DNA from: Candidatus Fermentibacterota bacterium
GTDB taxonomy: Bacteria; Fermentibacterota; Fermentibacteria; Fermentibacterales; JCC-6
Assembly: GCA_003646025.1 (NCBI GenBank)
Contig: QNDR01000001.1
Location: forward strand, 3,837-67,836
Reading direction: 5' to 3'
Length of the DNA: 64,000 bases
The first letter of the stretch is position 1, and each line of letters opens with the position of its first letter. The notes under the pieces are model-generated. The model was not told where the DNA came from, did not search any database, and worked only from the letters and a program-made list of their open reading frames with translations. The translations under genes and the position numbers were made by a program. Shown here one piece after another: positions 11,062-35,010 of this stretch.

Positions 11062-11288
11062 AATTGTTGCTACCTCCGGCTGTTTCTGCGTTTCCTGCGG
11101 AAACTGACTGGTGTGAAAGTTGAGAGACTATGAATGCTATATATGCCCCGGGTCAAGTATATACAGCCACCTGTATACCCTATTGACAGAAGCAAGGTTC
11201 TGGCAGTAGTCTACCCTAATCCGTGTGAGAAATCATACGGGATTCGGTTTTCCATTGTTCACCAAAGCTCTTGAGAAGGAGAGTGAGA

Positions 11289-15155: not shown

Positions 15156-16439
15156 CTACACCAGACCGCGGAGTCTCGCTGCATTTGCCACCCGGTCGAT
15201 GGCAATCATGTAGGCCGCGTCACGCATGTAGAGGGACTGGCTTTCCGCAAGATCGGCAACGGCATGGAATGCAGTTGTCATCTTTGTATCGAGTTTTGAA
15301 AGAACTTCCTCTTTTTCCCAGTAGTAGTTCATGTTGTTCTGTACCTGCTCGAAATAAGAGCATGTTACTCCGCCGGCATTGCACAGGAAGTCGGGAATGT
15401 TGAAGATTCCTCTTTCTTTCAGCACAACATCAGCCTCAGGTGTTGTAGGGCCGTTGGCACCTTCGGCAACAACCTTTACCCGTGGATGAATTTTGCCCAC
15501 GGTATCGGCGTTGATCTGGTTTTCAAGAGCACCCGGGAGAAGGACATCAGCTTCAGTCTCAATCCATGCATCACCTGGAAGCTGCTCGTAACCTGCTTCA
15601 ATGGCTTTTCCTGCATCAAGTGTACCGAAACGATCCGTTATGCTCATTACAAAATCAAGGTCAATTCCATCCATTTTGCGGTATGTGTAAGCCTTCATGT
15701 CCTTCTGATCCCAGCAGGAAACACAAAGAACCTTTCCGCCGTACTGAATGAAAAGATCTGCAGCATACTGCGTTACATTGCCAAAGCCCTGGCAGGCCAT
15801 TGTGGCACCTTTGATATCTATACCAAGACGCTTAAGTGCTTCTCTGACAGCGTAGATTGCGCCATAACCGGTAGCTTCTGTTCTTCCGAGTGAACCTCCG
15901 CTGCCGACAGGTTTACCAGTGATAACACCAGGGTACTTGCCGCCTTTGAGAGTTTCGTATTCATCCATCATCCACAGCATATGCTGAGGTGTGGTCAGAA
16001 CCACCGGGGCAGGAATGTCATGTACCGGGCCTATGTTTCTCCAGACATTAGGAATCCATCCGCGGCATATCTGTTCCTGCTCGCGCATTGAAAGCTCGTG
16101 AGGATTGCATATAACAACGCCTCGGCCACCACCGAGAGGAATGTCTACAACAGCGCACTTCCATGTCATCCATGTGGCAAGGGCTTTAACTGTGCTGATG
16201 GTTTCATCGGGGTGAAAGCGAATGCCGCCTTTGCACGGGCCGCGAACATCGCTGTGCTGTACTCTGAAGCCGCGGAAAACCTGAACTGATCCGTCATCCA
16301 TGTGTACGGGAATGGTGAAGTGGTACTCTCTCATTGGTTCACGGAGAAAGGCTCTTACACCAGCTTCAAGATCAAGTGTTTCAGCAATCTGATCAAACTG
16401 ATCCTGAGCCATTTTGAAAGCATCGAAACCTTTGGACAT
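15156..16439 (-). CDS. Glu/Leu/Phe/Val dehydrogenase family; glutamate dehydrogenase, short archaeal/Thermotoga type
   Basis: Contains the KGGIRFHP...GGGRGVVICNP...GFGNV Rossmann motif. RBS GGAGG precedes ATG at 16439, and a stem-loop (CCGGCGGGATGCCGG) sits in the leader. Confidence 0.85.
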   Translation of the reverse strand: MSKGFDAFKMAQDQFDQIAETLDLEAGVRAFLREPMREYHFTIPVHMDDGSVQVFRGFRVQHSDVRGPCKGGIRFHPDETISTVKALATWMTWKCAVVDIPLGGGRGVVICNPHELSMREQEQICRGWIPNVWRNIGPVHDIPAPVVLTTPQHMLWMMDEYETLKGGKYPGVITGKPVGSGGSLGRTEATGYGAIYAVREALKRLGIDIKGATMACQGFGNVTQYAADLFIQYGGKVLCVSCWDQKDMKAYTYRKMDGIDLDFVMSITDRFGTLDAGKAIEAGYEQLPGDAWIETEADVLLPGALENQINADTVGKIHPRVKVVAEGANGPTTPEADVVLKERGIFNIPDFLCNAGGVTCSYFEQVQNNMNYYWEKEEVLSKLDTKMTTAFHAVADLAESQSLYMRDAAYMIAIDRVANAARLRGLV

Positions 16440-16743
16440 CTCTGACCTCCTACCGGCGGGATGCCGGTAAAAAAAAAGAAGACCTGCTTCTTTTGGTGTT
16501 AAAATGGTCGGTACAGTACAGCCGACTCGGCGGTAATATATGGTACTTGCGTCTGTGAGAACAAATGCCTGTTCCGCACCGGCTTATTTTGTATCAGCCG
16601 TTCAGAAGGTGCTGCTCTAAAAGATGTAGCAGCAATATGATCCGTGTTAAACCCAGTTTTGTGTTGAAAATGCTGTCAGTTTGGTATTACGGAGAAAATT
16701 GTTCCCTGAATACCCTTGACTGTATCTGTGTATTGTTGTACAC

Positions 16744-16767
16744 TTGTGATAGTACAAACTATCACAA
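16744..16767. promoter_or_regulatory. 24-bp perfect palindrome TTGTGATAG-TACAAA-CTATCACAA immediately upstream of rex; candidate operator (Rex-like half-sites with non-canonical spacing)
   Basis: Read directly: 9-bp arms are exact reverse complements. The half-sites TTGTGA/TCACAA match Rex half-sites but are separated by 12 bp instead of 6. Confidence 0.4.
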
Positions 16768-16775
16768 TATTATGA

Positions 16776-17426
16776 ATGGAGATTACAGTGATTGCCGTTA
16801 AAGTTTCGGAAAAATCCATACGGAGGCTGAGCCACTATGCCCGATGTCTGCGCCTTGCAAAAAAGAGAGGAGAGTCGGTAATAACCTCCCGGCAGATGGC
16901 CGCGAACTGTGGAATTTCGTCTGCCGCCGTTCGCAGAGACCTGTCAATTTACGGAGAGTTCGGCAAACAGGGTTCCGGTTACAATGTAGACGACCTGCTG
17001 ATAAACATAGAGAATATTCTGGGAACAACTGATCCGCCATCTGTGATTATCGTCGGTGCCGGCAGTATCGGTTGTGCTCTGATGACATCCGGTCTTGCCG
17101 GCACAGGTGGTTACAACTACAGCGCTATTTTCGACAACGATTCTGCAAAAATAGGAAAAGAATGCAATGGCAGGGTTATCAGACCTGTTGAAAAAATTCA
17201 TGAGATTCTGCAGAAGGAGAAGGAAGTTATTGCGGTTATTGCTGTAACCGGTGGATCTGGACAGGCAGCTCTTGACATGCTGGTTGCGGCAGGTTGTAAG
17301 GCAATTCTAAGTTTTACTCTTGAGCCACTCAAGGCTCCAGAAGATGTTGAAATAAAATACGTTGAAGTGTCTACTGAACTCGATGTTCTGACCCATTCCA
17401 TGAGAAAGAAGGAGCGTGTTTACTGA
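16776..17426 (+). CDS. rex: redox-sensing transcriptional repressor Rex
   Basis: N-terminal winged helix (SIRRLSHYARCL) followed by a Rossmann motif (IIVGAGSIGCAL). The stop overlaps the next start (ATGA at 17423-17426), so this is the first gene of the operon. Confidence 0.85.
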   Translation: MEITVIAVKVSEKSIRRLSHYARCLRLAKKRGESVITSRQMAANCGISSAAVRRDLSIYGEFGKQGSGYNVDDLLINIENILGTTDPPSVIIVGAGSIGCALMTSGLAGTGGYNYSAIFDNDSAKIGKECNGRVIRPVEKIHEILQKEKEVIAVIAVTGGSGQAALDMLVAAGCKAILSFTLEPLKAPEDVEIKYVEVSTELDVLTHSMRKKERVY

Positions 17427-17923
17427 TGAAAAGAGCACCAGCCGTTGTTTCCACTTCGGTGATCCTGATGGGTATCTGGCTGAGTCTGACACTCAGCACC
17501 GATATCCAGGAGATTGTGCTGGGTGTGGTGGTTAGTGTTATTGCAGCCATAGCCACAAACGGAGCACTTACCGGAAACCTCTTCCGCCTTCTCAAGCCCC
17601 GAAAGTTCATAGCGGCAATTAGCTACATATTTTATTTTCTTGGCCAGATGATAAAAGCTAATATTGACGTACTGTTCAGAGTGTTCAGGCCCGTTATTCC
17701 TCTTAATCCCGGCATAGTAAAGGTAAACCTGAACTTGAAGAGCGAAAGGGCCAAGGTGATTGTCGCGAACTCAATTACCCTGACACCGGGAACCATAACC
17801 ATAGACATCGCTGGTGACCACATCTTTGTTCACTGGATCTTCCTTCCGGATGGAGATGTTCACGCGGAAACACAGTCGATGGTAGACGGTTTTGCAGGAA
17901 GATTGGAGAAGATCTTTGAGTAA
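17426..17923 (+). CDS. Mrp antiporter subunit E-like (MbxA/MbhA equivalent)
   Basis: MnhE pattern including SITLTPGTITIDIAGDHIFVHW. Confidence 0.8.
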   Translation: MKRAPAVVSTSVILMGIWLSLTLSTDIQEIVLGVVVSVIAAIATNGALTGNLFRLLKPRKFIAAISYIFYFLGQMIKANIDVLFRVFRPVIPLNPGIVKVNLNLKSERAKVIVANSITLTPGTITIDIAGDHIFVHWIFLPDGDVHAETQSMVDGFAGRLEKIFE

Positions 17924-18179
17924 CACATTCATGGTTATTCTTTTTGTGCTTATCGGTGGAGGGCTGTTCCTGGCTTTTCTTCGCCTGATTCTTGGCACAA
18001 AGGCAACAGACAGAGCTGTCGCTCTTGATACAACAACACTGATTACAACAGGATTTCTTGTGCTTGTCGCCTTTCTTCAGGGAAGGTCTATGCTTCTTGA
18101 TGTTGCCCTGGTTTATTCCGTCCTTTCTTTTCTTGGTGTTCTGGCCGTCGCCAGGTATCTCGACGGGGGGCTGAGATGA
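17892..18179 (+). CDS. Mrp subunit F-like (MbxB equivalent)
   Basis: MnhF motif LRLILGTKATDRAVALDTTTLI. The start is either TTG at 17892 or ATG at 17931. Confidence 0.75.
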   Translation: MQEDWRRSLSNTFMVILFVLIGGGLFLAFLRLILGTKATDRAVALDTTTLITTGFLVLVAFLQGRSMLLDVALVYSVLSFLGVLAVARYLDGGLR

Positions 18180-18511
18180 GTTTCACATTTATACTGGCTC
18201 ATGTGCTCACCGGACTGGGGGCATTGTTCCTTTTCGCCAGTGGTGTCGGGGTATTCAGAATGCCGGATGTTTTCAACAAGATGCATGCCGGTACGAAGGC
18301 TACTACTCTGGGCTCTATTCTGTTTCTTTCCGGACTGGGTCTTTTTGAGCCGTCATGGCTGCCGAAACTTCTTCTGGTTGCTGTTTTTATCGTTCTTACA
18401 AATCCGGTGTCCAGCCATGCTCTTGCAAGGGCCGCCCACAACGATGCATCTGAAAAGCCGGACAATCTGGTTATTGATGACCTTGAAGAGAGCAAGGGGG
18501 AAGAACAGTGA
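18176..18511 (+). CDS. Mrp subunit G-like (MbxC equivalent)
   Basis: MnhG motif FRMPDVFNKMHAGTKATTLG; overlaps its neighbours by 4 nt. Confidence 0.8.
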   Translation: MSFTFILAHVLTGLGALFLFASGVGVFRMPDVFNKMHAGTKATTLGSILFLSGLGLFEPSWLPKLLLVAVFIVLTNPVSSHALARAAHNDASEKPDNLVIDDLEESKGEEQ

Positions 18512-18759
18512 ATATGTCTTTGTTTGCTGCAGCTTCCATCGGTACAGGTGTAATGATGATAGTTGCTGCGGTTGCCGCTCTGATAGTGAAAAAACTGATT
18601 TCAGCCATTATCATCGTGGGCTTTGTAAGCCTTTCTGCATCGCTGCTTTTTCTTCTGATGGATGCGCCTGATGTGGCTATTACTGAAGCCAGCATCGGCG
18701 CTGCCATATCCACGGTTATTTTCCTCTGGGGAAGAGGAAAGATAGGAGGGGAACAATGA
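18508..18759 (+). CDS. small DUF4040/MnhB-N-terminal-like membrane subunit (MbxD equivalent)
   Basis: 83-aa two-TM protein in the operon position of MbxD/MbhD. Confidence 0.55.
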   Translation: MNMSLFAAASIGTGVMMIVAAVAALIVKKLISAIIIVGFVSLSASLLFLLMDAPDVAITEASIGAAISTVIFLWGRGKIGGEQ

Positions 18760-19445
18760 TACGCACCATCGTCGGGCTCGCAATTGTTCTTATCCTGATG
18801 GCTATTCTGATAACGGTTGTTGATGATTACACAGTTCCGTCCGCACTTTCAGGAGTGGGAGAATCGTACACAGAAACCGGAGTGGAGGATACTGGGTCTG
18901 TGAACCTTGTCACCGCTGTTGTGGTGGCTTACAGAGGGCTTGATACCCTGGGTGAAGTAGTGGTGCTTTTCAGCGCGTCCACCGCCGTTGTTCTTATCCT
19001 CACACTTATACCCATTGGTTCCGGGCCAACCCCTCCAAGCTCTATTGTTTCGTTCACTGCCGGTATTCTGCCGTCGGCGATCATTCTGTTCGGCATTTAC
19101 ATCATAACCCACGGGCATCTCAGTCCAGGTGGAGGATTTCCCGGCGGTGCGGTGGTCGCTTCGGCATTTCTGCTTGTAATGCTGGGCAGCAACACTGTTC
19201 CCGGGAAATCAAAATTTCTTTCCTCTATTGAGTCTCTTGCAGGTCTTACCTTCGGTCTGCTCGGGTTCTGGGGCATGTTTGCTGCAGGGCAGTTTCTGAA
19301 CAACCTTGTTCTTCCTGCAGGCTCTCCGGGGAGAATAATATCAGCAGGTATTATTCCCCTTATTTCACTGGCCATAGGGGCTAAAGTCGCAAGCGAGTTG
19401 TCTGGGATATTTTCTTCCTACAGAAAAGCGGGAGGTGAGAAATGA
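18756..19445 (+). CDS. Mrp subunit B-like (MbxF equivalent)
   Basis: MnhB motif NLVTAVVVAYRGLDTLGEVVVL. Confidence 0.8.
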   Translation: MIRTIVGLAIVLILMAILITVVDDYTVPSALSGVGESYTETGVEDTGSVNLVTAVVVAYRGLDTLGEVVVLFSASTAVVLILTLIPIGSGPTPPSSIVSFTAGILPSAIILFGIYIITHGHLSPGGGFPGGAVVASAFLLVMLGSNTVPGKSKFLSSIESLAGLTFGLLGFWGMFAAGQFLNNLVLPAGSPGRIISAGIIPLISLAIGAKVASELSGIFSSYRKAGGEK

Positions 19446-19798
19446 GTGCAGAGTATCTGTTTTACTGGTCCATGGCTGCCACAGGTCTGGGATTGATTCT
19501 GATAGGCTTGTGGGGTGTTCTCACAAGAAAACACATACTGAGGATCGCTCTCGCATTTACACTCGCGGACACAGGGGTAAACCTGATCCTGGTTTGGAGT
19601 GGTTTTCTTCCCGGCCGTTCTGCTCCCATAGTTGATTCATCTGTGACCCAGATGGTTGATCCCCTTCCGCAGGCACTTGTTCTTACTTCCATAGTCATAG
19701 GTGTGGCTGTTGCTGCCCTGTTCGTTGTGGTTGGTGTGCTGGCCTCGCGTAAATCCGGCTCTGCCGATATTCGACACATGAAGGAGCTGAAATGGTAA
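19442..19798 (+). CDS. Mrp subunit C / NuoK-like (MbxG equivalent)
   Basis: MnhC/NuoK-like sequence ILRIALAFTLADTGVNLILVW. Confidence 0.8.
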   Translation: MSAEYLFYWSMAATGLGLILIGLWGVLTRKHILRIALAFTLADTGVNLILVWSGFLPGRSAPIVDSSVTQMVDPLPQALVLTSIVIGVAVAALFVVVGVLASRKSGSADIRHMKELKW

Positions 19799-22713
19799 AA
19801 GCACTGGCTGTATTTCTGCCTCTTCTGGGAGCCTTTGTTAACGCCTGGCTTCCTGGAAAACACCCGAAAGCGTCCCGGTTCGTAAGTTACATAATCCTCA
19901 CAGCCGGTCTGGGCTTTGTTGTAATGCTCTCTTTGCAGCTTGGAGCCTGGAACCTTGAAGACCTGTCAGATTCCGTGATATTTCATTCCGGTGTCGGGGT
20001 TCCTCCTCTCAGTATCAATCTGGAGATTACTGCCGGTGGAACGCTGGTTGCTATTGCAATGTACCTGGCGGTTATTTTCTCCATTCATCGTTTCGCTCTG
20101 CATACCCCGAAGAGTCAGCCGTTGATTCTCGCCATGCTCACTGCTTCGCTGGGATTGCTGTTTGCCACCGACATCTTTAATTCGTTTGTGTTCCTTGAAA
20201 TAGGATCAATTGCCACCATCGGTCTTACTGCTGCCTCAAAATGCGGCAGCCGCTGGGAAGCAGCAATAAAAGTTGCACTGGTCTCAGGTCTGGTTACAAT
20301 TCTGTACCTGCTGGCAGTGGCTGTTCTTTACCGATCCACAGGTATGCTTACGCTGCAGGCTCTGGGTACGCTTACAGGCGGATCGGCGGTTCTTGTATCA
20401 ATACTGCTGCTGACCGTGATAGTTACAGAGCTCAAGGCCTTTCCGCTTACAGGGTGGGGGCTTGATTTCTATCAGGGAGCAAGCTCTAATGTTGCCGGGC
20501 TGTACAGTGCAACATGGAGTCTTGCCGTTCTTATGTGGGCAGCCAGAGTTCTACCTCTTCTTCCAATTGGAAACCCGATTATCTATGCCTGGATTGGGGC
20601 TGGAGGACTTGTTTTAAGCCAGCTTGCAGGCCTCCGGGCAGGCAGTGCCGGCAGAATACTGGGTTATTCCACTTCCGCCTATGCATCGCTTCTTCTTGTT
20701 GCAGCCGGTACACTCACCGGCGCCTTTTACACGCAGACTGTACTGATCCTCATGGTTTTTTCTTCACTGGCGAAGTTCAGTCTGTTCATGCTTGGAAACC
20801 CATGGAAAAATCGGAGATGGAGCGGCTACGGAACTATCCTTATGCTTGCACCGGTACTGCTTCTGGCAGGGATTCCGCCGCTTCCGGTTTTCTGGGCGAA
20901 ATTTGCCTTCCTTGGATACCTTGCATCCAACTTTACTGTGATTTTTTATGCTGTGCTGGCAGGGTTGTTCCTGGAAGCTGTATACCTGTTCCGATTCTGG
21001 GCAGACAGATCAGAAAAAATCCAACTGAAACCCTTTTCAAAGCCGTCGGCCACAGCAGGAGTTTTTGTGATACTGATCGCGGCGGTCTGGATAACACGGC
21101 TGCTGTGGACTCAGCTTGATTTCTCTGGATCAATTGTAACTTCATCGACCCTGCGTGTTATTTTCCACGTTCTGTTCGGTGCTGGAACTCTGCTGTGTCT
21201 TCCCGGTGTATTCAACCGAATCGGCAGCGAGAGAAACTACTGGTTCTGGCTGCTTATATCCGGTGCTTCGCTTACGCTGCTTCCTGCTGCTGGTAACGGA
21301 ATTACGTTCTACATCCTGTGGGAGATCTCCGCTTTTGCAGCGGTTGTTGGTGTGAGTCGAGGTTCTGGAGCCAGGAACGGTGCTTTCTGGTACGCCGTTT
21401 TCGCTTCATTCTCCGGATATCTGCTTCTTGCCGGAATTCTTCTTTCAAGGGGAAGTTTTGTAATGGCAGGGTTGCCTGCACTGCTGATGACACTGGCAGC
21501 GCTGGTTAAACTCGGACAGTTTGGAACACACCTCTGGAATGTAAGAACATATCCAGCGGCTCCAGGAACCATGCCTGCCTACCTTTCCGGAACTGCATCC
21601 AAAGCAGCAGTTCTTCTTTTAGTGGCAGTAGCTCTAAACGCCACAGGCGGCGCTCTTCCGTGGGGAAGGGTTATGGCCTGGGCAGGTGCTCTTACGGCAC
21701 TGGCCGGCGCTGTACTTGCCGCACTTGCTCCCGATTACAAGAAGCTGCTTGCCTATGCCAGTGTTTCCCAGATCGGATACATCCTGGTCGGGCTTGGGCT
21801 TGCAAGCATTTTGGGCTGGACTGCAGCTATTTATCACACAATACACCACATGATATTCAAGATGGCTCTCTTTCTGGGGGCTGCCAGCGTACTTTACAGA
21901 ACAGGCACAACCAGGTTTAACAATCTGGGAGGTCTTGTGAAAAAGATGCCCTTGACATTCGCATTTACGCTTATTGCCGTGATTTCCTTTGCCGGAGTAC
22001 CACCTCTTGCCGGTTTTGGTGGCAAGTGGCTTCTTTACAACGGACTGATCGAAGCAGGCTGGCTGCCGATTCTGATAGTGGCAATGTTTGCTTCAGTTGT
22101 AGCATTCCTCTACTCATACCGGTTGCTTCACGGGGTATTTCTCGGTCAGCTTTCACCTAAAAATGCCCACGCAAAGGAAGCTCCCCTCACCCTTTTGCTT
22201 CCTCAGGGTCTTCTTGCCGCATCCATAATGGTTCTTGGCTTCAAGCCAACACTGCTTCTTAACATCCTTGTCCCGGTGTTGAAGGCTATCCCGGGTCTTT
22301 CCGGGCTGGCACCGGTCATACAGGGAGACATGGTTCTCACCACAATGGGAACCTGGAATGCCTGGATGGTTGGTATTATGGTGATGGTTGTGTTTGGAAT
22401 TGCTTTCGTGTTCTACTGGATATCCGGCCACAAGCCGAAGTATGTAGGGCAGCTGGATATTGGTTTTGCAGGTGAGATGCCTCCCTCCGCTGATGAGGTT
22501 CACTATTCAAACAACTTTTACAGGCCTTATGAAAGGGCACTTGCCTTCCTTCCCAGAATACATGCGGAAAAACTATTCCACGGGGTAAGTAAGACCTTCA
22601 GTATGCTGGGTGACGGGGTGAGGATGCTGTTCACCGGCGACGGCAGAACGTATCTGGCTCATTCCCTGCTTTTCCTGGTGCTTCTGTTCGTGTTTCTGAA
22701 TGGAGGGATGTAA
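19792..22713 (+). CDS. fused tandem antiporter-like subunits (MrpD/NuoN-like x2; MbxH+H' equivalent), 973 aa
   Basis: Two successive NuoL/M/N-type modules. The second carries YASVSQIGYILVGLGL and HHMIFKMALFLGA. RBS AAGGAG sits 5 nt before ATG at 19792. Confidence 0.8.
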   Translation: MVKALAVFLPLLGAFVNAWLPGKHPKASRFVSYIILTAGLGFVVMLSLQLGAWNLEDLSDSVIFHSGVGVPPLSINLEITAGGTLVAIAMYLAVIFSIHRFALHTPKSQPLILAMLTASLGLLFATDIFNSFVFLEIGSIATIGLTAASKCGSRWEAAIKVALVSGLVTILYLLAVAVLYRSTGMLTLQALGTLTGGSAVLVSILLLTVIVTELKAFPLTGWGLDFYQGASSNVAGLYSATWSLAVLMWAARVLPLLPIGNPIIYAWIGAGGLVLSQLAGLRAGSAGRILGYSTSAYASLLLVAAGTLTGAFYTQTVLILMVFSSLAKFSLFMLGNPWKNRRWSGYGTILMLAPVLLLAGIPPLPVFWAKFAFLGYLASNFTVIFYAVLAGLFLEAVYLFRFWADRSEKIQLKPFSKPSATAGVFVILIAAVWITRLLWTQLDFSGSIVTSSTLRVIFHVLFGAGTLLCLPGVFNRIGSERNYWFWLLISGASLTLLPAAGNGITFYILWEISAFAAVVGVSRGSGARNGAFWYAVFASFSGYLLLAGILLSRGSFVMAGLPALLMTLAALVKLGQFGTHLWNVRTYPAAPGTMPAYLSGTASKAAVLLLVAVALNATGGALPWGRVMAWAGALTALAGAVLAALAPDYKKLLAYASVSQIGYILVGLGLASILGWTAAIYHTIHHMIFKMALFLGAASVLYRTGTTRFNNLGGLVKKMPLTFAFTLIAVISFAGVPPLAGFGGKWLLYNGLIEAGWLPILIVAMFASVVAFLYSYRLLHGVFLGQLSPKNAHAKEAPLTLLLPQGLLAASIMVLGFKPTLLLNILVPVLKAIPGLSGLAPVIQGDMVLTTMGTWNAWMVGIMVMVVFGIAFVFYWISGHKPKYVGQLDIGFAGEMPPSADEVHYSNNFYRPYERALAFLPRIHAEKLFHGVSKTFSMLGDGVRMLFTGDGRTYLAHSLLFLVLLFVFLNGGM

Positions 22714-23617
22714 AATGTTGTCCAACATAATGTCTATTCTCCTGACAGTTGTTACCGCCCTGGTGTGGGGTCTGCTTCTTGGAGGAATTTCCAGGAATGT
22801 AACCGCGAAGATTCACGGCAGGGTTGGTCCGCGAGTTACCCAGAACTTCATTGATCTTTGGAAGCTCTTCAGAAAAACTTCGTCTATTCATCATGGAGGA
22901 ATGTTCTGGATGGCTCCCCTGTTCAGAATAACAGGAGCGATTGCAGTGCTGCTCATGGTTCCTGTGGTCGTGGGTCACAACATTAACTACAACATGTCTT
23001 TTGCCGGAGACATCTTCCTTCTTCTTTACATCATGTTCTTCGGTTGTCTGGGAATGGCTCTTGGAGCCGGAAATTCCGGTCATCCATACTCTGTGGTAGC
23101 AATAAGCCGCGGACTTGCTCAGATGTCATCCTACGAGCTTTCATTCTCCATTGCTGTAGTGGCAGTTGCCGTAGGTCTGCATACTCTGAGAATAGAGGGA
23201 ATTGTTGCTGCCCAGCAGGCGGGTGTTTCAAGCTGGAACATATTCAGGTTTCCTTTCGCGTCCGCCGGCGCGCTGATTGCTTTTCTTCCCATGCAGATGG
23301 CGTATCCTTTCAGTATTGTACTGGCCCCGCAGGAGATACCTATTGGTCCTCCAACAGAGTACAGCAGCAGATTTCTGTCTTTCATGTTCAGTGGGAGGGC
23401 ACTGTTCAGCGTGGCCAAACTGCTGTTGTTTGTAAATCTTTTCTTTGGCGGTGCTTCCAGCTGGATGGCGCTGTTCGTTAAGACTTTCCTTCTTTACATG
23501 TATGCGATCGTAGTGAGTTCGGTATTTCCAAGATTCAGAACAGAGCAGAGCATTAAATTCCTCTGGCTTGTTCCCACTACTCTGGCTCTCGTGGACCTTG
23601 TCCGCGTGATGCTTTAG
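22700..23617 (+). CDS. NuoH-like membrane subunit (MbxM/MbhM equivalent)
   Basis: N-terminal AKIHGRVGPRVTQNFIDLWKLFRK resembles the NuoH/HyfC/MbhM loop; about 8 TM segments. Confidence 0.7.
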   Translation: MEGCKMLSNIMSILLTVVTALVWGLLLGGISRNVTAKIHGRVGPRVTQNFIDLWKLFRKTSSIHHGGMFWMAPLFRITGAIAVLLMVPVVVGHNINYNMSFAGDIFLLLYIMFFGCLGMALGAGNSGHPYSVVAISRGLAQMSSYELSFSIAVVAVAVGLHTLRIEGIVAAQQAGVSSWNIFRFPFASAGALIAFLPMQMAYPFSIVLAPQEIPIGPPTEYSSRFLSFMFSGRALFSVAKLLLFVNLFFGGASSWMALFVKTFLLYMYAIVVSSVFPRFRTEQSIKFLWLVPTTLALVDLVRVML

Positions 23618-23626
23618 GAGGCTGTG

Positions 23627-24190
23627 ATGTACTGTAATCAACCACCGAAGAAGCCGGGAGACAAAAAAGAGGTTCTTCAGAAGATCACCAACATGGCCCG
23701 GGCAAACAGCCTGTGGGTCACCGCCTACGGTACAGGCTGCGGCTCCATCGAGCTCCGGCCTCTGGGCACTTCAAGGTTTGACATGGAGCGGTTCGGGATA
23801 GCCATGCGGCCAACTCCAAGGCAGGCGGATGTGCTGATCATCTCCGGGTATCTGGCAACAAAAACCCTGAAGAGAGTGATCAGAGTTTACGAGCAGATCC
23901 AGGATCCCAAGTACATCATGGCCCTCGGCTCATGCACCATCAACGGCGGAATGTATTTTGATTCCTACAACACACTGAATGTTCTGGACAAGTACCTTCC
24001 GGTGGATGTGTATGTCATGGGATGTATGCCAAGACCGGAGGCTATAATTGATGGTTTCAGTCTGCTGATGAAGAAGATAAAGGAAGGCAGAGCTGTGGGC
24101 TGGAAGCACTACAGGGAAAATTTGGATTACTACCGGGAAAACCAGAAACAGATCATCAAAAACTGGGACCTTCCCGATTACAACTGGTAA
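23627..24190 (+). CDS. NuoB / [NiFe]-hydrogenase small-subunit-like protein (MbxJ equivalent)
   Basis: Candidate proximal-cluster Cys ligands: GTGCGSIELRP, LGSCTINGG and VMGCMPRPE. RBS AGGAGG precedes the GTG-ATG at 23624-23629. Confidence 0.8.
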   Translation: MYCNQPPKKPGDKKEVLQKITNMARANSLWVTAYGTGCGSIELRPLGTSRFDMERFGIAMRPTPRQADVLIISGYLATKTLKRVIRVYEQIQDPKYIMALGSCTINGGMYFDSYNTLNVLDKYLPVDVYVMGCMPRPEAIIDGFSLLMKKIKEGRAVGWKHYRENLDYYRENQKQIIKNWDLPDYNW

Positions 24191-24201
24191 GGGGTGAGAA
24201 T

Positions 24202-24765
24202 ATGATTGACAAAGTAAAAAAAGAGCTGGAAATCCGTTTCCCCTTACTGAAGCTGGTAAGAGAGCAGCATAACTACCTGCATATAAAGGTAGACAAAGCT
24301 GCTGCCGCAGACGCGGTGCTTACGGCTAAAACCAGTCTGGGTTTTACTACTCTTCAGCTGATAAGCGCGGTAGACAGAATAGAAAACGGAGCGTTTCAGT
24401 TGACCTGGATACTGGAAAACTACGATGAGCAGGAAATCCTTCTTATCAGTGCCTACTTTCCAAGGAAAAACTGCGTTGTTCCTTCTTTGAGTCAAATCTG
24501 GCCGGCTGCCAGTGCTTTCGAGCGTGAACTTTTCGAAATGTTTGGAATCAGTTTTCCCGGTAATCCCAGGGAGGGCGAAGACTTCCTGCTGGAAGGCTGG
24601 AAAGACATGCCGCCTATGCGGAGAGATTTTGAAACAGAAGAATACGCTAGAAGAACATTTGGCGAGCGGCAGCCCAGGGAGCACACAGACCCGAGACAGT
24701 ACATCGGAGATGTGGTTGGTGAATGGAATACTCCCATGGGACGCAACAGAGAGGAGGAAAAATAA
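24202..24765 (+). CDS. NuoC (30 kDa)-like subunit (MbxK equivalent)
   Basis: ERELFEMFGISFPGNP matches the NuoC signature. Confidence 0.8.
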   Translation: MIDKVKKELEIRFPLLKLVREQHNYLHIKVDKAAAADAVLTAKTSLGFTTLQLISAVDRIENGAFQLTWILENYDEQEILLISAYFPRKNCVVPSLSQIWPAASAFERELFEMFGISFPGNPREGEDFLLEGWKDMPPMRRDFETEEYARRTFGERQPREHTDPRQYIGDVVGEWNTPMGRNREEEK

Positions 24766-25889
24766 TGGGTGTTAACCCGGCAACAGATCCGAAAAAAACC
24801 ACCCATCTCTTCTTTGGTCCGCAGCATCCCGGCGTAACCGGTAACATGAGTGTTGAAATGTGGTTTGACGGAGATCAGGTAACAAAGGCAATAACCCATG
24901 TTGGATATCTCCACAGAGGTTTTGAAAAGCTCATGGAGAAAAGGCTCTGGATACAGAACTTTCCTCTTGTGTGCAGAATCTGTGTTCCGGAACCGGACAT
25001 AAATGAGGAGTGCTACGCCCTGGCAATTGAAGAGCTTGCAGGAATAAAAGTACCGGAAAGGGCAAAGTGGATAAGAACTCTTGTTCTTGAAATGGCGAGA
25101 CTTGCAATGAATCTTATGGCGTTCGGGGGCCAGGCTGGTACTTTGGGACTCGGAACAGGAGCCATGTGGGGTATTACATTCAGAGACTTTATTCTCGATC
25201 TGTTTGAAGAACTCACTGGCGCCAGAGTTTATCACATCTATATCCAGCCTGGAGGCGTCAGACGCGATCTGCCCCGGGGATTCAGGAAGCGTGTTCACCT
25301 TGTTCTGAACAAGATTGAAGAGAGACTTCCCGAGTTTGATCGATTGATACTGAACAACGCAGTTTTCAAATTAAGAACGAAAGGCATAGGCGCTGTAAAA
25401 CCGGAGTGGATAGAGGAGTACGGTCTTGTTGGACCTGTTGCCAGAGGCAGCGGTTCAGTACGGGATGTAAGAAAAGACGCTCCCTACGAAATCTACGACA
25501 AGCTTGATTTCGATGTGGTTACTGAAACAGGCAGCGACATATACGCCAGAGCAATGGTCAGAAGAAGGGAAATCGAGCTCAGTATCTCGCTTATCAGACA
25601 GATCGTGGGAGGAATACCGCCAGGACCTGTTGCGACGAAATTACCCAATCTTACCGAGTGGAGAGTACCTGCAGGTGAGTACTATTCCCGCGTGGAATCT
25701 TCCCGTGGTGAGTATGGCTACTACGTGGTTAGTGACGGGTCTCTCAAACCGAGAAGGGTGCATGTGCGTGGGCCTTCATACGTGCACGCAGTTCCCCTCC
25801 TTGAGAGGATGCTGATTGGGGCCAACATAGCCGATGTTTCGAACATCATGGTAAGTCTCACCACCTGTCCGCCGGAAATAGAGAGGTAG
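24765..25889 (+). CDS. NuoD / [NiFe]-hydrogenase large-subunit homologue with degenerate metal-site motifs (MbxL/MbsL-like)
   Basis: Carries HRGFEKLME and YIQPGGV. The N-terminal motif reads LVCRICVPEPD where hydrogenases have RxCGxCxxxH. The C-terminus reads LTTCPPEIER where hydrogenases have DPCxxCxxH. Strong RBS GAGGAGG precedes ATG at 24765, which overlaps the nuoC-like stop. Confidence 0.8.
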   Translation: MGVNPATDPKKTTHLFFGPQHPGVTGNMSVEMWFDGDQVTKAITHVGYLHRGFEKLMEKRLWIQNFPLVCRICVPEPDINEECYALAIEELAGIKVPERAKWIRTLVLEMARLAMNLMAFGGQAGTLGLGTGAMWGITFRDFILDLFEELTGARVYHIYIQPGGVRRDLPRGFRKRVHLVLNKIEERLPEFDRLILNNAVFKLRTKGIGAVKPEWIEEYGLVGPVARGSGSVRDVRKDAPYEIYDKLDFDVVTETGSDIYARAMVRRREIELSISLIRQIVGGIPPGPVATKLPNLTEWRVPAGEYYSRVESSRGEYGYYVVSDGSLKPRRVHVRGPSYVHAVPLLERMLIGANIADVSNIMVSLTTCPPEIER

Positions 25890-25896
25890 GAAACTT

Positions 25897-27666
25897 ATGA
25901 AATTTACAGATGTAATCTCTCCATTCCTGGCCTGGTCCAGAGCGGCGAAGAAAGCCGATACTATTCCATATCCCACTCAGCAGAACCCGGGAGCAGACAG
26001 GTATCGCGGTTTCCACATTAACGATACAAGCAAGTGTATCGGCTGTGGCAGGTGTGAGACTATCTGCGAGAACAAAGCCATCGACATGGTGAAGGTTGAG
26101 GGTATTGAACCCACAAAGGGAGATTCCGGTCTCAGACCGGTTGTAGACTACGGCAGATGCTGCTGGTGTGCGCTGTGCATCGATGTATGCTCCACTGGCT
26201 CCCTTGCCTTTACCAATGAATACAGATGGGTAACTGAAAAACCCGACACTTGCAGGTACACTCCAGGTGTTGACAAAAAGGCATGGGACAACGAGGAAAA
26301 GGGTTACAGACAGGAAAATGACGTTCTCGGGTGGGCCGGCTCACCCAGGGAAGAAATGACGATCGAAGTTCCAGAAGAGCGAATCAAGACCTTCGATGAA
26401 GTTGTGAAGGGCTACACAGTACAGCAGGCAATGGATGAAGCTTCAAGATGCATCCAGTGCGGTCTCTGCATCAGTGCCTGCCCCGCGCACATGCATATAC
26501 CCGACTACCTGAAGGCCATTGCTGAAGGAAGATTTGTTGATGCGGTTAAACTGTTCTACGACAACAACCCCCTTCCAGAGATGTGCGGAAAGGTCTGCAC
26601 CAGGCAGTGTGAAACAGTCTGTGCCATGGGCTATCAGGGTGAGTCTATCGCAATCAGGTGGCTCAAGCGATTTGCCTGCGAGCAGTTCGAATCCCTTGCC
26701 GATGTGCTTGCACTTGAGGCACAGCCGGGAGAGCCGAACGGGAAGAAGGTTGCAGTTGTTGGCGCAGGTCCTTCAGGTCTCAGTGCTGCATACTACCTTT
26801 CCCGTAAGGGATACGAGGTGCATGTGTTCGACCGCTATGAAAAAGGTGGCGGCGTAGCATGGTACGCCATTCCCGAGTACAGGCTTCCTGCTGAAGGCAT
26901 CAGCAAGCAGATGAAGGTCTTTGAACAGGCCGGCGTAATAATGAATTACGGGAAAGAAATCAATGCCGGAATGCTGAAGAAGCTGGAATCTGAATTCGAT
27001 GCCGTTTACCTTGCCGTTGGACTTCAGAAACCTTCCAGTGCAAGGATTGAGGGTGAGGACCTTCCAGGGGTCAGACCTGCGTTTGATTTCCTTATGAATT
27101 CTCCGGAAAAAACAGAAGATCTCAAAGGCAAAACTGTCATCGTCATAGGCGGGGGAAATGTTGCTATGGACACAGCCAGAACCTGTGTAAGACTCGGGGC
27201 TGAAGTTATCCTGTCCTACAGAAGGCGTGTTGTGGACATGCCGGCAGATGATGAAGAGATCCATGAGGCCATGGAGGAAACCATCGATTTCAGGCCGAAA
27301 ACAATTCCCATCAGAATCGAAAAGACGAAGAACGGTATCAGGTATCTCTACCACGAAGCCAAGATGGTTCCGAACCCCAAAGGAGGCAGGCCTTCACCCA
27401 AGCCGAAGGATGATGTTGAGCATGCAATAGATGCAGACATCCTGTTCTCTGCCATAGGTCAAACCTCCGACATTGAGTTTATTCCCGAATCAATGCAGAA
27501 GGAAATGGAACTCAAATGGGGCCGTATTATCGTAGACGACAAGCAGTACACGGGCTACAAAAACTTCTTCGCCGGTGGCGATATCACACCTGGCGAGGGT
27601 GATGCGATAACAGCAATAGCAGATGGCCTGAGAGCTGTTCAGGGAATAGTAGACCGGCTGGAATAA
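25897..27666 (+). CDS. fusion of a NuoI/MbxN-type 2x[4Fe-4S] ferredoxin subunit with a GltD/SudA-like FAD/NAD(P)H oxidoreductase
   Basis: N-terminus: CIGCGRCETIC plus CCWCALCIDVC (two ferredoxin motifs). Then the GltD N-terminal FeS region (CIQCGLCISACP...NPLPEMCGKVCTRQCETVC). Then two Rossmann motifs (VAVVGAGPSGLSAAYYL and VIVIGGGNVAMDTA). Confidence 0.8.
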   Translation: MKFTDVISPFLAWSRAAKKADTIPYPTQQNPGADRYRGFHINDTSKCIGCGRCETICENKAIDMVKVEGIEPTKGDSGLRPVVDYGRCCWCALCIDVCSTGSLAFTNEYRWVTEKPDTCRYTPGVDKKAWDNEEKGYRQENDVLGWAGSPREEMTIEVPEERIKTFDEVVKGYTVQQAMDEASRCIQCGLCISACPAHMHIPDYLKAIAEGRFVDAVKLFYDNNPLPEMCGKVCTRQCETVCAMGYQGESIAIRWLKRFACEQFESLADVLALEAQPGEPNGKKVAVVGAGPSGLSAAYYLSRKGYEVHVFDRYEKGGGVAWYAIPEYRLPAEGISKQMKVFEQAGVIMNYGKEINAGMLKKLESEFDAVYLAVGLQKPSSARIEGEDLPGVRPAFDFLMNSPEKTEDLKGKTVIVIGGGNVAMDTARTCVRLGAEVILSYRRRVVDMPADDEEIHEAMEETIDFRPKTIPIRIEKTKNGIRYLYHEAKMVPNPKGGRPSPKPKDDVEHAIDADILFSAIGQTSDIEFIPESMQKEMELKWGRIIVDDKQYTGYKNFFAGGDITPGEGDAITAIADGLRAVQGIVDRLE

Positions 27667-27681
27667 CCAGCCCATCACACA

Positions 27682-27711
27682 GGCAGGCGGAGGTTGATGC
27701 CTCCACCTGCC
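27682..27711 (+). terminator. rho-independent-like terminator after the operon
   Basis: GGCAGGCGGAGG-ttgatg-CCTCCACCTGCC hairpin (one mismatch) followed by a T-containing tail. Confidence 0.45.
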
Positions 27712-27951
27712 TTGTATATCGGGAACAAGCACCCCCAGTAACCAATCTTGAAACATTCATTTTCACAGTAGTAATTGCAGCGCCTGTGTTGAGCGCTTAA
27801 CAAAAAGCGATGAGCAGATTCAGGCTGAAATTGAAGAGTATGAAGCATTCGCTGTGTATGATGCTTCCTCTACAGAGGGGTATCAGCCAACGATGTATCA
27901 ACAGTTATAGTGAATACTTCAGACAAATGATATTACGAAAAAAGGGATATT

Positions 27952-28368
27952 TCAGGAATCAAATTTCCTTGTTTCATGCAGAACGATTGGTAGATACTTT
28001 ACAAACTGCTGGAAATCCCTATCTGTAGTGTAAATAGCCATTTTTCTCCGCACCGCAACTGCACATATCAAAAAATCAGTGTTTGATCCCTGAATTCCCT
28101 TTGCCCGGCACTTATTGAAGTATTTAGCTGCAGTAACATGATCAGTGGCTTCCAGAGTGATGTCCGGAAATGCTTTCAGGTGTTCTTCAAGCCTGTCGAA
28201 CTGAGCATCCACACGCAACCCGGACAATAGCTCCTGGCGTATAGGGCCAATTATTTCAACACGATGCTCACGGATCAAACCCTGGAGCTCTCTTGAAACA
28301 TCTGATTCCTCACTGGTTTTCCGGCGAAGAGCCTCAGACCAGACACATGTGTCCACCAGAATTCTCAT
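27952..28368 (-). CDS. vapC: PIN-domain toxin VapC
   Basis: N-terminal MRILVDTCVW, about 138 aa, overlaps the upstream antitoxin by 4 nt. Confidence 0.75.
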   Translation of the reverse strand: MRILVDTCVWSEALRRKTSEESDVSRELQGLIREHRVEIIGPIRQELLSGLRVDAQFDRLEEHLKAFPDITLEATDHVTAAKYFNKCRAKGIQGSNTDFLICAVAVRRKMAIYTTDRDFQQFVKYLPIVLHETRKFDS

Positions 28369-28734: not shown

Positions 28735-29511
28735 TTATCTTGTTTCTTTAACTCTTCCCACCGGTGCCAGGTAAACCACGAACTCGTCAACTCCGTCCAG
28801 ATGCAGAAGATCGTCAACCTTGCTCTGCGAGTATGCGGCAATGGCAACTGTCCCCAGCTGAAGAGACTCTGCGGCAAGGTAGAGGTTCTGGCACACATGA
28901 CCTGCGTCCAGAAGCATGGCCTTGTGGGATTCCCCTTTGTAACGCCATTCTCCCATGTAGGGTCTGCAGGCCCAGAAGAAAACAACCGGGGCCTCGCCTG
29001 TAAAGCTCTGTCCCGCTGCTGCCGTAGTAAGTTTTTCCCCGATATTGTTTTCCTGAAACAGGAAGATCAGGCTGTGCCTCAGCGCTGAGTAACGGTATAT
29101 GCCGGGTTTTACTCCGGTAACTCTGTTGATTGCCAGATAGGTTTCAAAAGGGTGACGGGCGCCTGCAGATGGAACCGTTCTGAAAGTTACAGTTCCCCTG
29201 TTTTTGTATGCGTTGATAGTTTTTTTCACACCCTGAGTTGCCCACAGCAAGAAAGACAGCTCTTCCAGCGTAATGCTTCCTGTGGTGTATTTTCTTCTGC
29301 TTACCCTGTCAAGAATACAGTTCGCAAGGCCAGGTTTAATTGCTTTTACAGAATCGTGTTCAGGAAGTGCAATTTCAACAGCATCCGGAAGAATCCGGGA
29401 TTCCACCGGAGGAGGGTTTACTCCCCGATCCTGATCTGATTTTTCTTCAAGAAATTTGGGAGCGTCAAAATGTGACTTCATCAGTTCTCTGTTGGTTATC
29501 CAGTTTTTCAT
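28735..29511 (-). CDS. SagB-type dehydrogenase (nitroreductase superfamily)
   Basis: The pattern ELSFLLWATQG...VPSAGARHPFETYL...LLDAGHVCQNLYLAA is typical of SagB/ThcOx-like proteins. Start chosen at ATG 29511 (TGGAGGAAC-ATG). Confidence 0.6.
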   Translation of the reverse strand: MKNWITNRELMKSHFDAPKFLEEKSDQDRGVNPPPVESRILPDAVEIALPEHDSVKAIKPGLANCILDRVSRRKYTTGSITLEELSFLLWATQGVKKTINAYKNRGTVTFRTVPSAGARHPFETYLAINRVTGVKPGIYRYSALRHSLIFLFQENNIGEKLTTAAAGQSFTGEAPVVFFWACRPYMGEWRYKGESHKAMLLDAGHVCQNLYLAAESLQLGTVAIAAYSQSKVDDLLHLDGVDEFVVYLAPVGRVKETR

Positions 29512-29632
29512 GTTCCTCCAATGTTCTGGGCAATATGGGAACGGGTTGAGATTTGTGCAATCGGTGCGTTTGGAATAATGGTCCGAATTGTTTAGTATTA
29601 ATTCAAGGAGCATTACAAAGAAGGAGATTAGA

Positions 29633-30076
29633 GTGAGCGCATCTAACAGGGACACACTGCATCTTCTGGCAGTATTTCACTATGTAGTCGCAGGGCTGAT
29701 TGCTCTTGCTGCATGTTTTCCACTGATTCACTTGACCGCAGGCATGTTTCTGGCTGTTGGAGGCGTCAGTAATGATGAGCCTGCAGCGGGAGTTGTAGGT
29801 GCAACCTTTGTGGTGATTGCAGCCATTCTGATTATCATTGGATGGGGTCTTGCGATATTCGTATTTATTTCAGGGAAAAACCTGGACAGGCAGACGAAGT
29901 ATCAGTTCTGCATGGTCGGGGCAGGTGTGTTGTGCATATTTATGCCTCTTGGTACAATACTGGGAGTCTTTACCCTGGTGACCCTGCAGGATGATGCAGT
30001 GAAACAGCTCTTCAAGAACAATGAACAGTCTGTTCCTGGTGACCAGTCAGAATCTTTGAAACAGCGGAAAGACTGA
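29633..30076 (+). CDS. small membrane protein, paralog A (DTLHLL family), 3-4 TM
   Basis: GTG start at 29633 after AAGGAG. About 60% identical to the 30776 ORF, including at the nucleotide level. Confidence 0.55.
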   Translation: MSASNRDTLHLLAVFHYVVAGLIALAACFPLIHLTAGMFLAVGGVSNDEPAAGVVGATFVVIAAILIIIGWGLAIFVFISGKNLDRQTKYQFCMVGAGVLCIFMPLGTILGVFTLVTLQDDAVKQLFKNNEQSVPGDQSESLKQRKD

Positions 30077-34800: not shown

Positions 34801-35010
34801 AGTAAACTCCAACTGTTTAGTGTTGCGCATACTGGAACTGTGTGGAAGAGAGAAACTCTCTAAACACCATTGTGAATATATGAATAAGGGTAATAGAAAT
34901 ACAACTATTCTATATCAATTATATATGAATATATTAATACATACTGAAGTGATAGGAAATTAAAAACCAGCAACGGAGATACTTCAAAAGGATCTCCGCT
35001 GCTGTGACTG

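Follow-up and report, generated by a model that had tools for sequence, protein, structure and literature searches.

The subject of this analysis is a 64,000-nucleotide stretch (the window) of contig QNDR01000001.1, from an uncultured Candidatus Fermentibacterota bacterium, and within it an operon predicted to encode an ion-translocating membrane oxidoreductase related to the Pyrococcus furiosus MBS complex (formerly Mbx; structure 6U8Y). Thirteen co-directional, closely packed open reading frames (ORFs) occupy positions 16776-27666 of the plus strand, comprising rex, which encodes a redox-sensing repressor, and 12 structural genes. A first-pass annotation of the DNA had proposed a Rex-led operon of this extent and composition; all of the ORFs lie where it had placed them, and Pfam and NCBIfam profile searches assigned all 13 to the families it had claimed. 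The features are as follows.

16716..16744, plus strand: sigma-70-type promoter, TTGACT-17 nt-TACACT, identified by promoter scan
16744..16767, no strand: perfect 10+10 palindrome, TTGTGATAGT-ACAA-ACTATCACAA, candidate Rex operator overlapping the -10 box and start site
16788..17426, plus strand: rex, redox-sensing repressor (Pfam Put_DNA-bind_N and CoA_binding; NCBIfam Rex subfamily, 195 bits)
17426..17923, plus strand: MbsA-like subunit (MrpE/MnhE; PF01899, E = 2e-35)
17931..18179, plus strand: MbsB-like subunit (MrpF; PF04066, E = 3.5e-16); the ORF opens at TTG 17892
18176..18511, plus strand: MbsC-like subunit (MrpG/MnhG; PF03334, E = 2e-26)
18508..18759, plus strand: MbsD-like subunit (MbhD/DUF4040; PF13244, E = 9e-19)
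18756..19445, plus strand: MbsE-like subunit (MbhE and MnhB domains; PF04039, E = 1e-19; PF20501, E = 1e-5)
19442..19798, plus strand: MbsG-like subunit (MrpC/NuoK; PF00420, E = 1.5e-20)
19792..22713, plus strand: fused MbsH and MbsH' antiporter-like subunit, 973 aa (6u8y_H and 6u8y_X matches)
22700..23617, plus strand: MbsM-like (NuoH) membrane anchor (6u8y_M, 119 bits)
23624..24190, plus strand: MbsJ-like (NuoB) subunit with the proximal [4Fe-4S] cluster (6u8y_J, 220 bits)
24202..24765, plus strand: MbsK-like subunit (NuoC; PF00329, E = 1e-24)
24765..25889, plus strand: MbsL-like subunit (NuoD/NiFe large-subunit relic; 6u8y_L, 361 bits); the ORF opens at 24723
25897..27666, plus strand: MbsN (NuoI-type, 2x[4Fe-4S]) fused to an NfnB/GltD-type module, 589 aa (Pfam; full-length NCBIfam NF010590)
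27679..27715, plus strand: GC-rich hairpin, likely operon terminator (RNA fold -30.8 kcal/mol; 13 nt past the last stop)

The structural genes are collinear with Pyrococcus mbsABCDEGHH'MJKLN, and the NuoH-like M gene precedes J-K-L-N. Translation of rex probably begins at GTG 16788, which has GGAG 6 nt upstream, and not where its ORF opens (ATG 16776); the starts of mrpF and the L gene are probably ATG 17931 and ATG 24765. With these likely starts, neighboring genes overlap by up to 14 nt or are separated by no more than 11 nt. One nucleotide is common to the rex stop and the mnhE start (TGATG), so the overlap that had been described is real but does not take the ATGA form given for it. The hairpin beyond the last gene is far more stable than its shuffles (average -16.6 kcal/mol, z = -5.2); it is followed by UUGUAUAU and then by a gene convergent with the operon. 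Predicted operon-internal promoters (12, compared to 10.9 in shuffles) and terminators (17, compared to 12.5) showed no excess over shuffled sequence, and the scan, although it falls short of proof, gives no evidence for a split transcript. The N-terminal half of the 973-aa protein resembles 6u8y_H (120 bits), and the C-terminal half, including its extension, resembles 6u8y_X (195 bits). From these assignments, the membrane part of the complex would be a Mrp-type Na+/H+ module with two antiporter-like pumps, joined in one protein here, and its peripheral arm would resemble that of complex I.

The core subunits were compared with all solved structures, and P. furiosus MBS was the best match for each of them. 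L scored 361 bits against MBS, at most 246 against the complex I 49-kDa subunit, and 133 against MbhL; the corresponding values were 220, at most 142 (complex I/NDH), and 106 (MbhJ) for J, and 119, about 56 (complex I/NDH), and 57 (MbhM) for M, which scored about 48 bits against NuoH. Together with the gene order, these scores bear out the earlier assignment to Mbx/Mbs and not to Mbh. Hallmarks of MBS are two leftover NiFe cysteines in L (C85 and C385), the absence of the quinone His/Tyr pair, and a three-Cys proximal cluster (PMC7684303). The window L retains C73 and C368, equivalent to MbsL C85 and C385, in the motifs RIC-VPE and TTC-PPEIER, and has Glu at the lost second and fourth positions, so that half of its Ni-Fe cysteines are indeed missing, as had been noted. 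Among L homologs, the first Cys is present in 43 of 45 sequences and the third in 42 of 45, and Glu occupies positions 2 and 4 in nearly all 45. An additional residue, C70, lies three residues ahead of C73 in a VCRIC motif found in 38 of the 45 sequences. When L is aligned with the 49-kDa subunits of Drosophila and human, Thr and Val stand in place of the His and Tyr that contact the quinone head group (PGVT-G for PAAH-G and RIC-V for RLD-Y). The window J offers only C38, C103, and C133 (in GTGCG, GSCT, and GCMP) as ligand positions for the proximal cluster. The tandem Cys-Cys of the complex I B subunit is absent (SCC in NdhK, GCG in the window), and Gly takes the place of MbsJ C25 both in the window and in 38 of 39 comparable related loci; the sequence of the remaining locus, L013, ends at the motif. 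Because there are only three Cys ligand positions, the proximal [4Fe-4S] cluster would have one open iron, although a fourth, non-Cys ligand is possible.

These residues bear directly on two alternatives. An energy-converting [NiFe] hydrogenase of the Mbh/Ech type would account for the homology of L and J to group-4 subunits (the MbhL and MbhJ scores above), and an enzyme of this type is part of the metabolic model in PMC5030696. However, two of the four NiFe cysteines are gone, replaced by Glu in the window and in nearly all homologs, which rules out a hydrogenase at the sequence level; the gene order is Mbs-like, whereas Mbh has M after L, and the window ORFs that were scanned included no hyp maturation genes. 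The probability of this assignment is close to nil, in agreement with the first-pass annotation. The second alternative is a minimal complex I, an NAD(P)H:quinone oxidoreductase with the GltD module in place of NuoEFG. A Nuo-like subunit set is present overall, and L passes the NCBIfam NF004739 "NuoD" model with 426 bits (cut-off 360), yet all of the subunits compared match MBS far better than complex I. Profile searches did not find genes for NuoEFG (the 51-, 24-, and 75-kDa subunits) in the cluster. Classical complex I, which had also been discounted earlier, is ruled out because the cluster lacks NuoEFG and the tandem CC and has replaced the quinone His/Tyr; a quinone reductase was rejected on these active-site residues. 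With genomes of Hyd24-12 (Fermentibacterota) also reported to lack respiratory pathways (PMC5030696), we regard a minimal complex I as very unlikely. By the sequence of its subunits, the complex belongs with MBS, the N subunit excepted.

The N subunit is not the plain 2x[4Fe-4S] protein found in MBS, where it accepts electrons from ferredoxin; its counterpart in the window is fused to a flavoprotein, as had been anticipated from the first reading of a ferredoxin-type subunit carrying an NAD(P)H-flavin module, and both profile and structure matches agree on NuoI plus NfnB/GltD. Residues 7-113 resemble 6u8y_N (77 bits), and residues 154-584 resemble Thermotoga maritima NfnB (4YLF_B, 259 bits), NfnI-L (5JCA_L, 253 bits), and, at a lower score, plain GltD (201 bits). 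NfnB aligns along the whole of the C-terminal ~430 residues, and the alignment takes in two [4Fe-4S] motifs, the FAD-binding GxGxxG, and the YRR of the NADPH site. Across phyla, none of the 17 cluster cysteines varies among 38 full-length homologs, and Glu239, beside a cluster Cys, is also invariant. Since the N subunit is covalently extended by the NfnB/GltD-type module, the predicted FAD/NAD(P)H site is wired to the arm through four invariant [4Fe-4S] sites. The flavoprotein retains a recognizable NuoI di-cluster domain and, on this evidence, is a true fusion. At the nucleotide site, the motif after the second Rossmann strand is YRRR in 34 of 38 loci and also in Candidatus Hydrothermae, matching the NADPH site of NfnB; LES or LER replaces it in L012, a rex-led Fermentibacteraceae-like locus, in three Bacteroidales loci (L036, L037, and L038), and in Thermosipho (L047). 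An acidic residue at this position is typical of NADH sites, which suggests that the family switches between NADPH and NADH. The AlphaFold2 model of the fusion is confident in the GltD half, but the NuoI half has a predicted local distance difference test score (pLDDT) below 50, so the packing geometry between the halves is unusable. One 605-aa NuoI+GltD fusion (L051 10001-11818) stands alone beside a gene for formate-tetrahydrofolate ligase, with no Mbx genes nearby. Restriction of the fusion protein to Mbx clusters was accordingly rejected, and because this copy lacks Mbx genes, the fused flavoprotein is also used outside the membrane complex.

The likeness to NfnB raises the prospect of flavin-based electron bifurcation or confurcation, in which the NfnB-like FAD would split the NADPH electron pair, sending the downhill electron through the arm to an acceptor at the membrane site and the uphill electron to ferredoxin; run backward, the reaction would reduce NADP+ with electrons from both ferredoxin and the arm. 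Among solved structures, the C-terminal module is closest to bifurcating subunits, with NfnB and NfnI-L scoring above GltD, and both NfnB cluster motifs and the invariant Glu239 are retained. Similarity to NfnB is no predictor by itself, however, because the GltD of glutamate synthase shares the fold; no NfnA-like partner ([2Fe-2S] and a second FAD) was found in the cluster, and the AlphaFold model offers no usable N-domain geometry for such a scheme (pLDDT <50). We consider bifurcation quite unlikely.

The cluster is widespread. When species-representative genomes were scanned with the fusion protein, 46 loci were found, the closest in a Ca. Fermentibacteraceae metagenome-assembled genome (MAG; 98% identity) and further ones at 60-95% identity in Ca. 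Sabulitectum and Fermentibacteraceae. In tblastn searches with the 13 window proteins, the whole mnhE-to-fusion cluster was found, with its order kept, in more than 30 MAG loci, including ones labeled Krumholzibacteriota, Planctomycetota, Acidobacteriota/Thermoanaerobaculia, Bacteroidales, Fibrobacteraceae, and Lysobacterales. With the fusion included, the cluster occurs in at least 10 bacterial lineages, among them WOR-3, Ca. Hydrothermae, and Thermosipho. Among the best 120 matches in a large protein collection, full-length homologs formed more than 110 clusters at 90% identity. An exhaustive search of 50%-identity representatives gave about a dozen separate clusters in which the fusion is complete; below ~330 bits, matches among these representatives cover the GltD half alone. 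In cultured Thermosipho melanesiensis, ABR31076 (616 aa) is 42% identical to the window protein, aligned over residues 6-584, and is surrounded by the same cluster. Recurrence of the fused architecture in related genomes, which had been left for checking, thus extends across many lineages, and the idea that the cluster is unique to this genome was rejected. Two forms can be distinguished. Thermosipho, Ca. Hydrothermae, and WOR-3 have separate H and H', CTGCG in J, and no extra Cys in L, whereas the subclade of the window (Fermentibacterota together with FCB-group, Acidobacteriota, and Planctomycetota loci) has fused H-H', encoded by one single ORF in every locus, GTGCG in J, and VCRIC in L. 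A rubrerythrin-family gene follows the fusion gene in seven related loci (L018, L019, L022, L030, L031, L046, and the Thermosipho locus L047). No rubrerythrin gene lies at the end of the window operon, where the hairpin is followed by a convergent gene for a PIN-domain protein.

The encoded repressor is an orthodox Rex, matching T. maritima Rex (5ZZ5) with 110 bits and possessing the winged helix-turn-helix, the GAGSIG Rossmann motif, and FD after strand 2. Its gene immediately precedes mnhE in 10 of 10 related Fermentibacteraceae loci, and the junction is overlapping or at most 2 nt in the nine that are measurable; L013 was ambiguous and L042 gave no result. In L042 (8355-9891), rex and the start of mnhE run directly into the last third of the fusion gene, an arrangement that would reflect either a deletion of ~9 kb or a chimeric assembly. 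A promoter of the form TTGAC(T/C/A)-17-TAnnnT occupies the equivalent position in 11 of 11 Fermentibacteraceae sequences. The palindrome at 16744..16767 occurs once in the window (chance expectation, 0.01) and recurs, with 0-3 mismatches, just upstream of rex in 10 of 10 related loci (L001, L005, L006, L007, L010, L012, L013, L014, L040, and L042). This conservation of promoter, palindrome, and gene order upholds the view that rex leads the operon. The half-sites of the palindrome are Rex-type (TTGTGA/TCACAA) but are N12 apart, compared to the canonical N6, and the inner TAGT/ACTA is also conserved; the T. maritima operator used for crystallography has a half-site spacing of 6 (PMC8836258). 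A Rex-box scan of the window (TTGTGAANNNNTTCACAA, at most three mismatches) gave six matches against 4.9 expected, none near the operon promoter, and because the matches stay at chance level no canonical Rex site is claimed for the window.

Outside Fermentibacterota, rex reappears beside the cluster in two other settings. In Ca. Hydrothermae, it is co-directional with the cluster, separated by a 4-nt gap, behind TTGACA-17-TATATT and with a near-canonical TTGTGAAAGTTATCAC after the -10 box; a rex-first layout unique to the window was therefore rejected. In Thermosipho, rex is divergent from the cluster, and two canonical boxes with two mismatches each lie within 300 bp, one at the rex start and the other 19 nt into mnhE, where we estimate ~0.14 chance matches for the whole 21.8-kb locus. 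Because rex reappears beside these two clusters, the linkage is recurrent, occurring in three phyla and in three layouts. In the remaining MAG loci outside Fermentibacterota, rex was not found within ~1 kb upstream of the cluster. The divergent upstream slot taken by Rex in Thermosipho is occupied in WOR-3 by a gene for a MarR-family regulator (L050 456-836, minus strand).

The interpretation we favor, to which we give about an even chance, is a Rex-derepressed, ion-translocating complex that oxidizes NAD(P)H, and possibly also ferredoxin, and reduces a non-quinone acceptor, probably sulfane sulfur. According to this proposal, Rex would repress the operon at low NADH/NAD+, and a build-up of NADH would release it. 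The complex would then oxidize NAD(P)H, perhaps with reduced ferredoxin entering at the N domain, and electrons would run down the cluster chain to an acceptor at the proximal cluster that is neither a quinone nor a proton, most likely sulfane sulfur or polysulfide. Export of Na+/H+ would make the complex an energy-conserving redox valve for a fermenter with no respiratory chain. Rex targets are typically NADH-consuming enzymes (NADH sinks), and Rex control therefore fits a role in relieving NADH. The two glutamate dehydrogenase genes beside the operon would be sources of NAD(P)H. A flavoprotein of the CoA-disulfide-reductase/NADH-oxidase family is encoded at 33436-34830 (minus strand), 5.8 kb downstream of the window operon; it is 47% identical to the product of L047 16553-17893 (plus strand), which lies 4.7 kb downstream of the Thermosipho cluster. 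We take this protein to belong to the family of the Pyrococcus/Thermotoga NAD(P)H sulfur reductase (NSR). In T. maritima, mbxA is induced 4.4-fold by elemental sulfur (S0; PMC9431562), and Hyd24-12 genomes, which lack respiratory pathways, are predicted to use S0 (PMC5030696). The MBS-like pocket, the induction of mbxA, the prediction for Hyd24-12, and the nearby NSR-family gene together make sulfane sulfur the best candidate acceptor.

Several observations weigh against this proposal. The acceptor is carried over from MBS by analogy only, and an NSR-like gene lies near the cluster in just two loci, with none found in the other loci examined. On textbook potentials, electron transfer from NAD(P)H to polysulfide releases roughly 60-110 mV, barely enough for one ion, yet the full two-pump membrane arm is kept despite so small a yield. 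The YRRR motif of the flavoprotein is of the NADPH type, whereas Rex senses NADH. The palindrome has N12 and not the canonical N6 spacing, so it is treated only as a candidate Rex operator, and the window holds no canonical Rex box above chance. Finally, earlier authors gave the complex the opposite direction, from ferredoxin to NAD(P)+ (PMC4758237; 10.1101/322537).

That published proposal for bacterial mbx-like/gltD clusters, for which 10.1101/322537 cites Schut 2013, amounts to an Rnf-like ion-translocating ferredoxin:NAD(P)+ oxidoreductase: ferredoxin would dock at the N domain and electrons would exit via the FAD of the GltD module, with a drop of ~100-150 mV driving Na+/H+ export, or with the gradient driving the reverse reaction, and no external acceptor would be necessary. 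The NfnB/GltD module is reversible in known enzymes, the fermenting host makes reduced ferredoxin by PFOR (PMC5030696), and the adjoining glutamate dehydrogenase genes could supply or consume NAD(P)H. The direction of flow cuts both ways: running from NAD(P)H to ferredoxin would suit Rex derepression at high NADH, but the forward direction makes NAD(P)H, which would be odd under such control. Electron flow between the N clusters and FAD would also bypass the J/L/M pocket, the site where redox chemistry is coupled to pumping in all solved relatives, and would leave that pocket, the three cluster cysteines of J, and the two cysteines of L, all conserved across phyla, without a job. Archaeal Mbx was initially credited with this function too, before it was shown to reduce polysulfide directly (PMC7684303). 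We regard an Rnf-like role as the main rival, possible though less likely than the favored proposal.

It is unlikely, though worth stating, that the GltD-fused subclade is an energy-converting enzyme of a new type, distinct from both a simple NAD(P)H-dependent and a simple ferredoxin-dependent Mbs. In one version, it may be a flavin-bifurcating membrane complex in which NADPH oxidation is coupled to reduction of both ferredoxin and sulfur or a disulfide while ions are pumped. In another, chemistry like that of ferredoxin:thioredoxin reductase or Hdr, acting on a disulfide or persulfide, could take place at the complex I coupling site; this version is suggested by the open proximal iron, the fourth position fixed as Gly, and the subclade-specific CxxC of L (VCRIC).

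Other genes in the window provide context for the operon. Two glutamate dehydrogenase paralogs are present upstream (11271-12641, plus strand, and 15156-16439, minus strand), as the first-pass annotation had reported. A 336-bp spacer separates the second from the divergently oriented rex, and the gdh-rex adjacency is found in L001, L005, L007, and L042. Two minus-strand genes, 8089-11061 and 12708-15044, encode proteins of 990 and 778 aa that match only PPDK_N, far under the family cut-offs; PPDK_N is the ATP-binding domain of phosphoenolpyruvate synthase and pyruvate phosphate dikinase. Downstream and convergent with the operon are the PIN-domain gene (27952-28368, minus strand) and a gene for a SagB-type peptide dehydrogenase of the nitroreductase fold (28735-29655, minus strand). 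The gene at 31262-33295 (plus strand) encodes a gingipain-like C25 peptidase that has a propeptide and a C-terminal sorting domain for type-IX secretion, which is consistent with a proteolytic, amino-acid-fermenting organism of the FCB group. Farther out are a 1218-aa sigma-54 activator with TPR repeats (219-3875, minus strand) and, at 50545-53468 (plus strand), a histidine kinase and then a response regulator that carries a fused PglZ domain.

The first-pass annotation had implied that the composition of the complex was novel, and this does not hold. A bacterial "mbx-like operon" was described in 2015 (Degli Esposti), with NuoI replaced by a gltD-related flavoprotein and often with rubrerythrin at the end, and in Thermotogae and proteobacteria with an L subunit retaining the vestigial first and third NiFe cysteines (PMC4758237); papers on Thermotogae name the complex Mbx in T. 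maritima and Mesotoga (PMC9431562, 10.1101/322537). With the cluster and its fusion in at least 10 lineages and in cultured T. melanesiensis, the window holds the Fermentibacterota copy of an already described Mbx-like complex, and its architecture is not new. Described is not the same as characterized: a literature search, with some key papers beyond its reach, turned up no biochemical or structural work on the complex with the fusion. Of the refutation that the first-pass annotation had named, an identical architecture already characterized, only half therefore applies. The transcribed "NADH-oxidoreductase (ndh)" reported for Ca. Sabulitectum silens (PMC5763382), the source of L013, may be the copy of this cluster in that organism. 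As far as the literature was checked, three points appear undescribed: retention of the NuoI di-cluster in the flavoprotein, making it a true fusion; the subclade marked by GTGCG in J, VCRIC in L, and fused H-H'; and the linkage of Rex to the cluster in three phyla.

Mbx-like complexes whose N subunit is fused to an NAD(P)H flavoprotein span Thermotogota, WOR-3, Hydrothermae, Fermentibacterota, Bacteroidota, Acidobacteriota, Planctomycetota, and others. If they pass electrons from NAD(P)H or ferredoxin to sulfur with ion pumping, they would constitute an overlooked sulfur respiration in fermenters of sediments and digesters; if they are instead ferredoxin:NAD(P)+ oxidoreductases, they would be a second solution to the task of Rnf, unrelated to Rnf. 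This study offers three handles, namely the repeated Rex linkage, the genetically fixed three-Cys proximal cluster, and the switch between YRRR and LES/LER, and all three are testable because cultured Thermosipho and Thermotoga strains carry the complex.

Among known systems, the Rex regulons of Firmicutes, Thermotogae, and Actinobacteria share with the window an orthodox Rex, half-sites at the promoter, and a predicted target that is a pyridine-nucleotide-linked energy enzyme. They differ in half-site spacing, N12 in Fermentibacteraceae and N6 in canonical operators and in Thermosipho, and in the position of the window rex as the first cistron of its target operon. NfnAB and GltD are related through the C-terminal 430 residues, which align with T. 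maritima NfnB and P. furiosus NfnI-L, but the window has no NfnA or GltB partner, and its module is fused to a NuoI-type di-cluster domain in the last gene of a membrane complex. The bacterial mbx-like operon likewise has a Mrp module, then NuoH/B/C/D homologs, and, at the place of NuoI, a gltD-related flavoprotein, and the T. melanesiensis ortholog is the same NuoI+GltD fusion. The subclade of the window departs from it in the fused H-H', GTGCG in place of CTGCG in J, and VCRIC in L, and the window lacks the terminal rubrerythrin that Thermosipho and six other loci have; rex is divergent in Thermosipho, with an NADH-like LER motif in the flavoprotein, whereas in the window it leads the operon and the motif is the NADPH-like YRRR.

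The closest solved system is P. furiosus MBS, which has the same A B C D E G H H' M J K L N order and is the best solved match for each core subunit (L 361, J 220, H' 195, H 120, M 119, and N domain 77 bits). Both complexes have only the first and third NiFe cysteines in L, no quinone His/Tyr, and three effective Cys ligands for the proximal cluster. In the window, however, H and H' form one polypeptide, and N carries an NfnB/GltD flavoprotein extension of ~430 residues that is absent from MbsN. MbsJ C25, present but non-ligating in MBS, is Gly, and the extra Cys of the window L forms a CxxC with the retained first Cys. The window system is, in addition, bacterial and putatively controlled by Rex, in contrast to the SurR system of archaea (reference list of PMC10356935).

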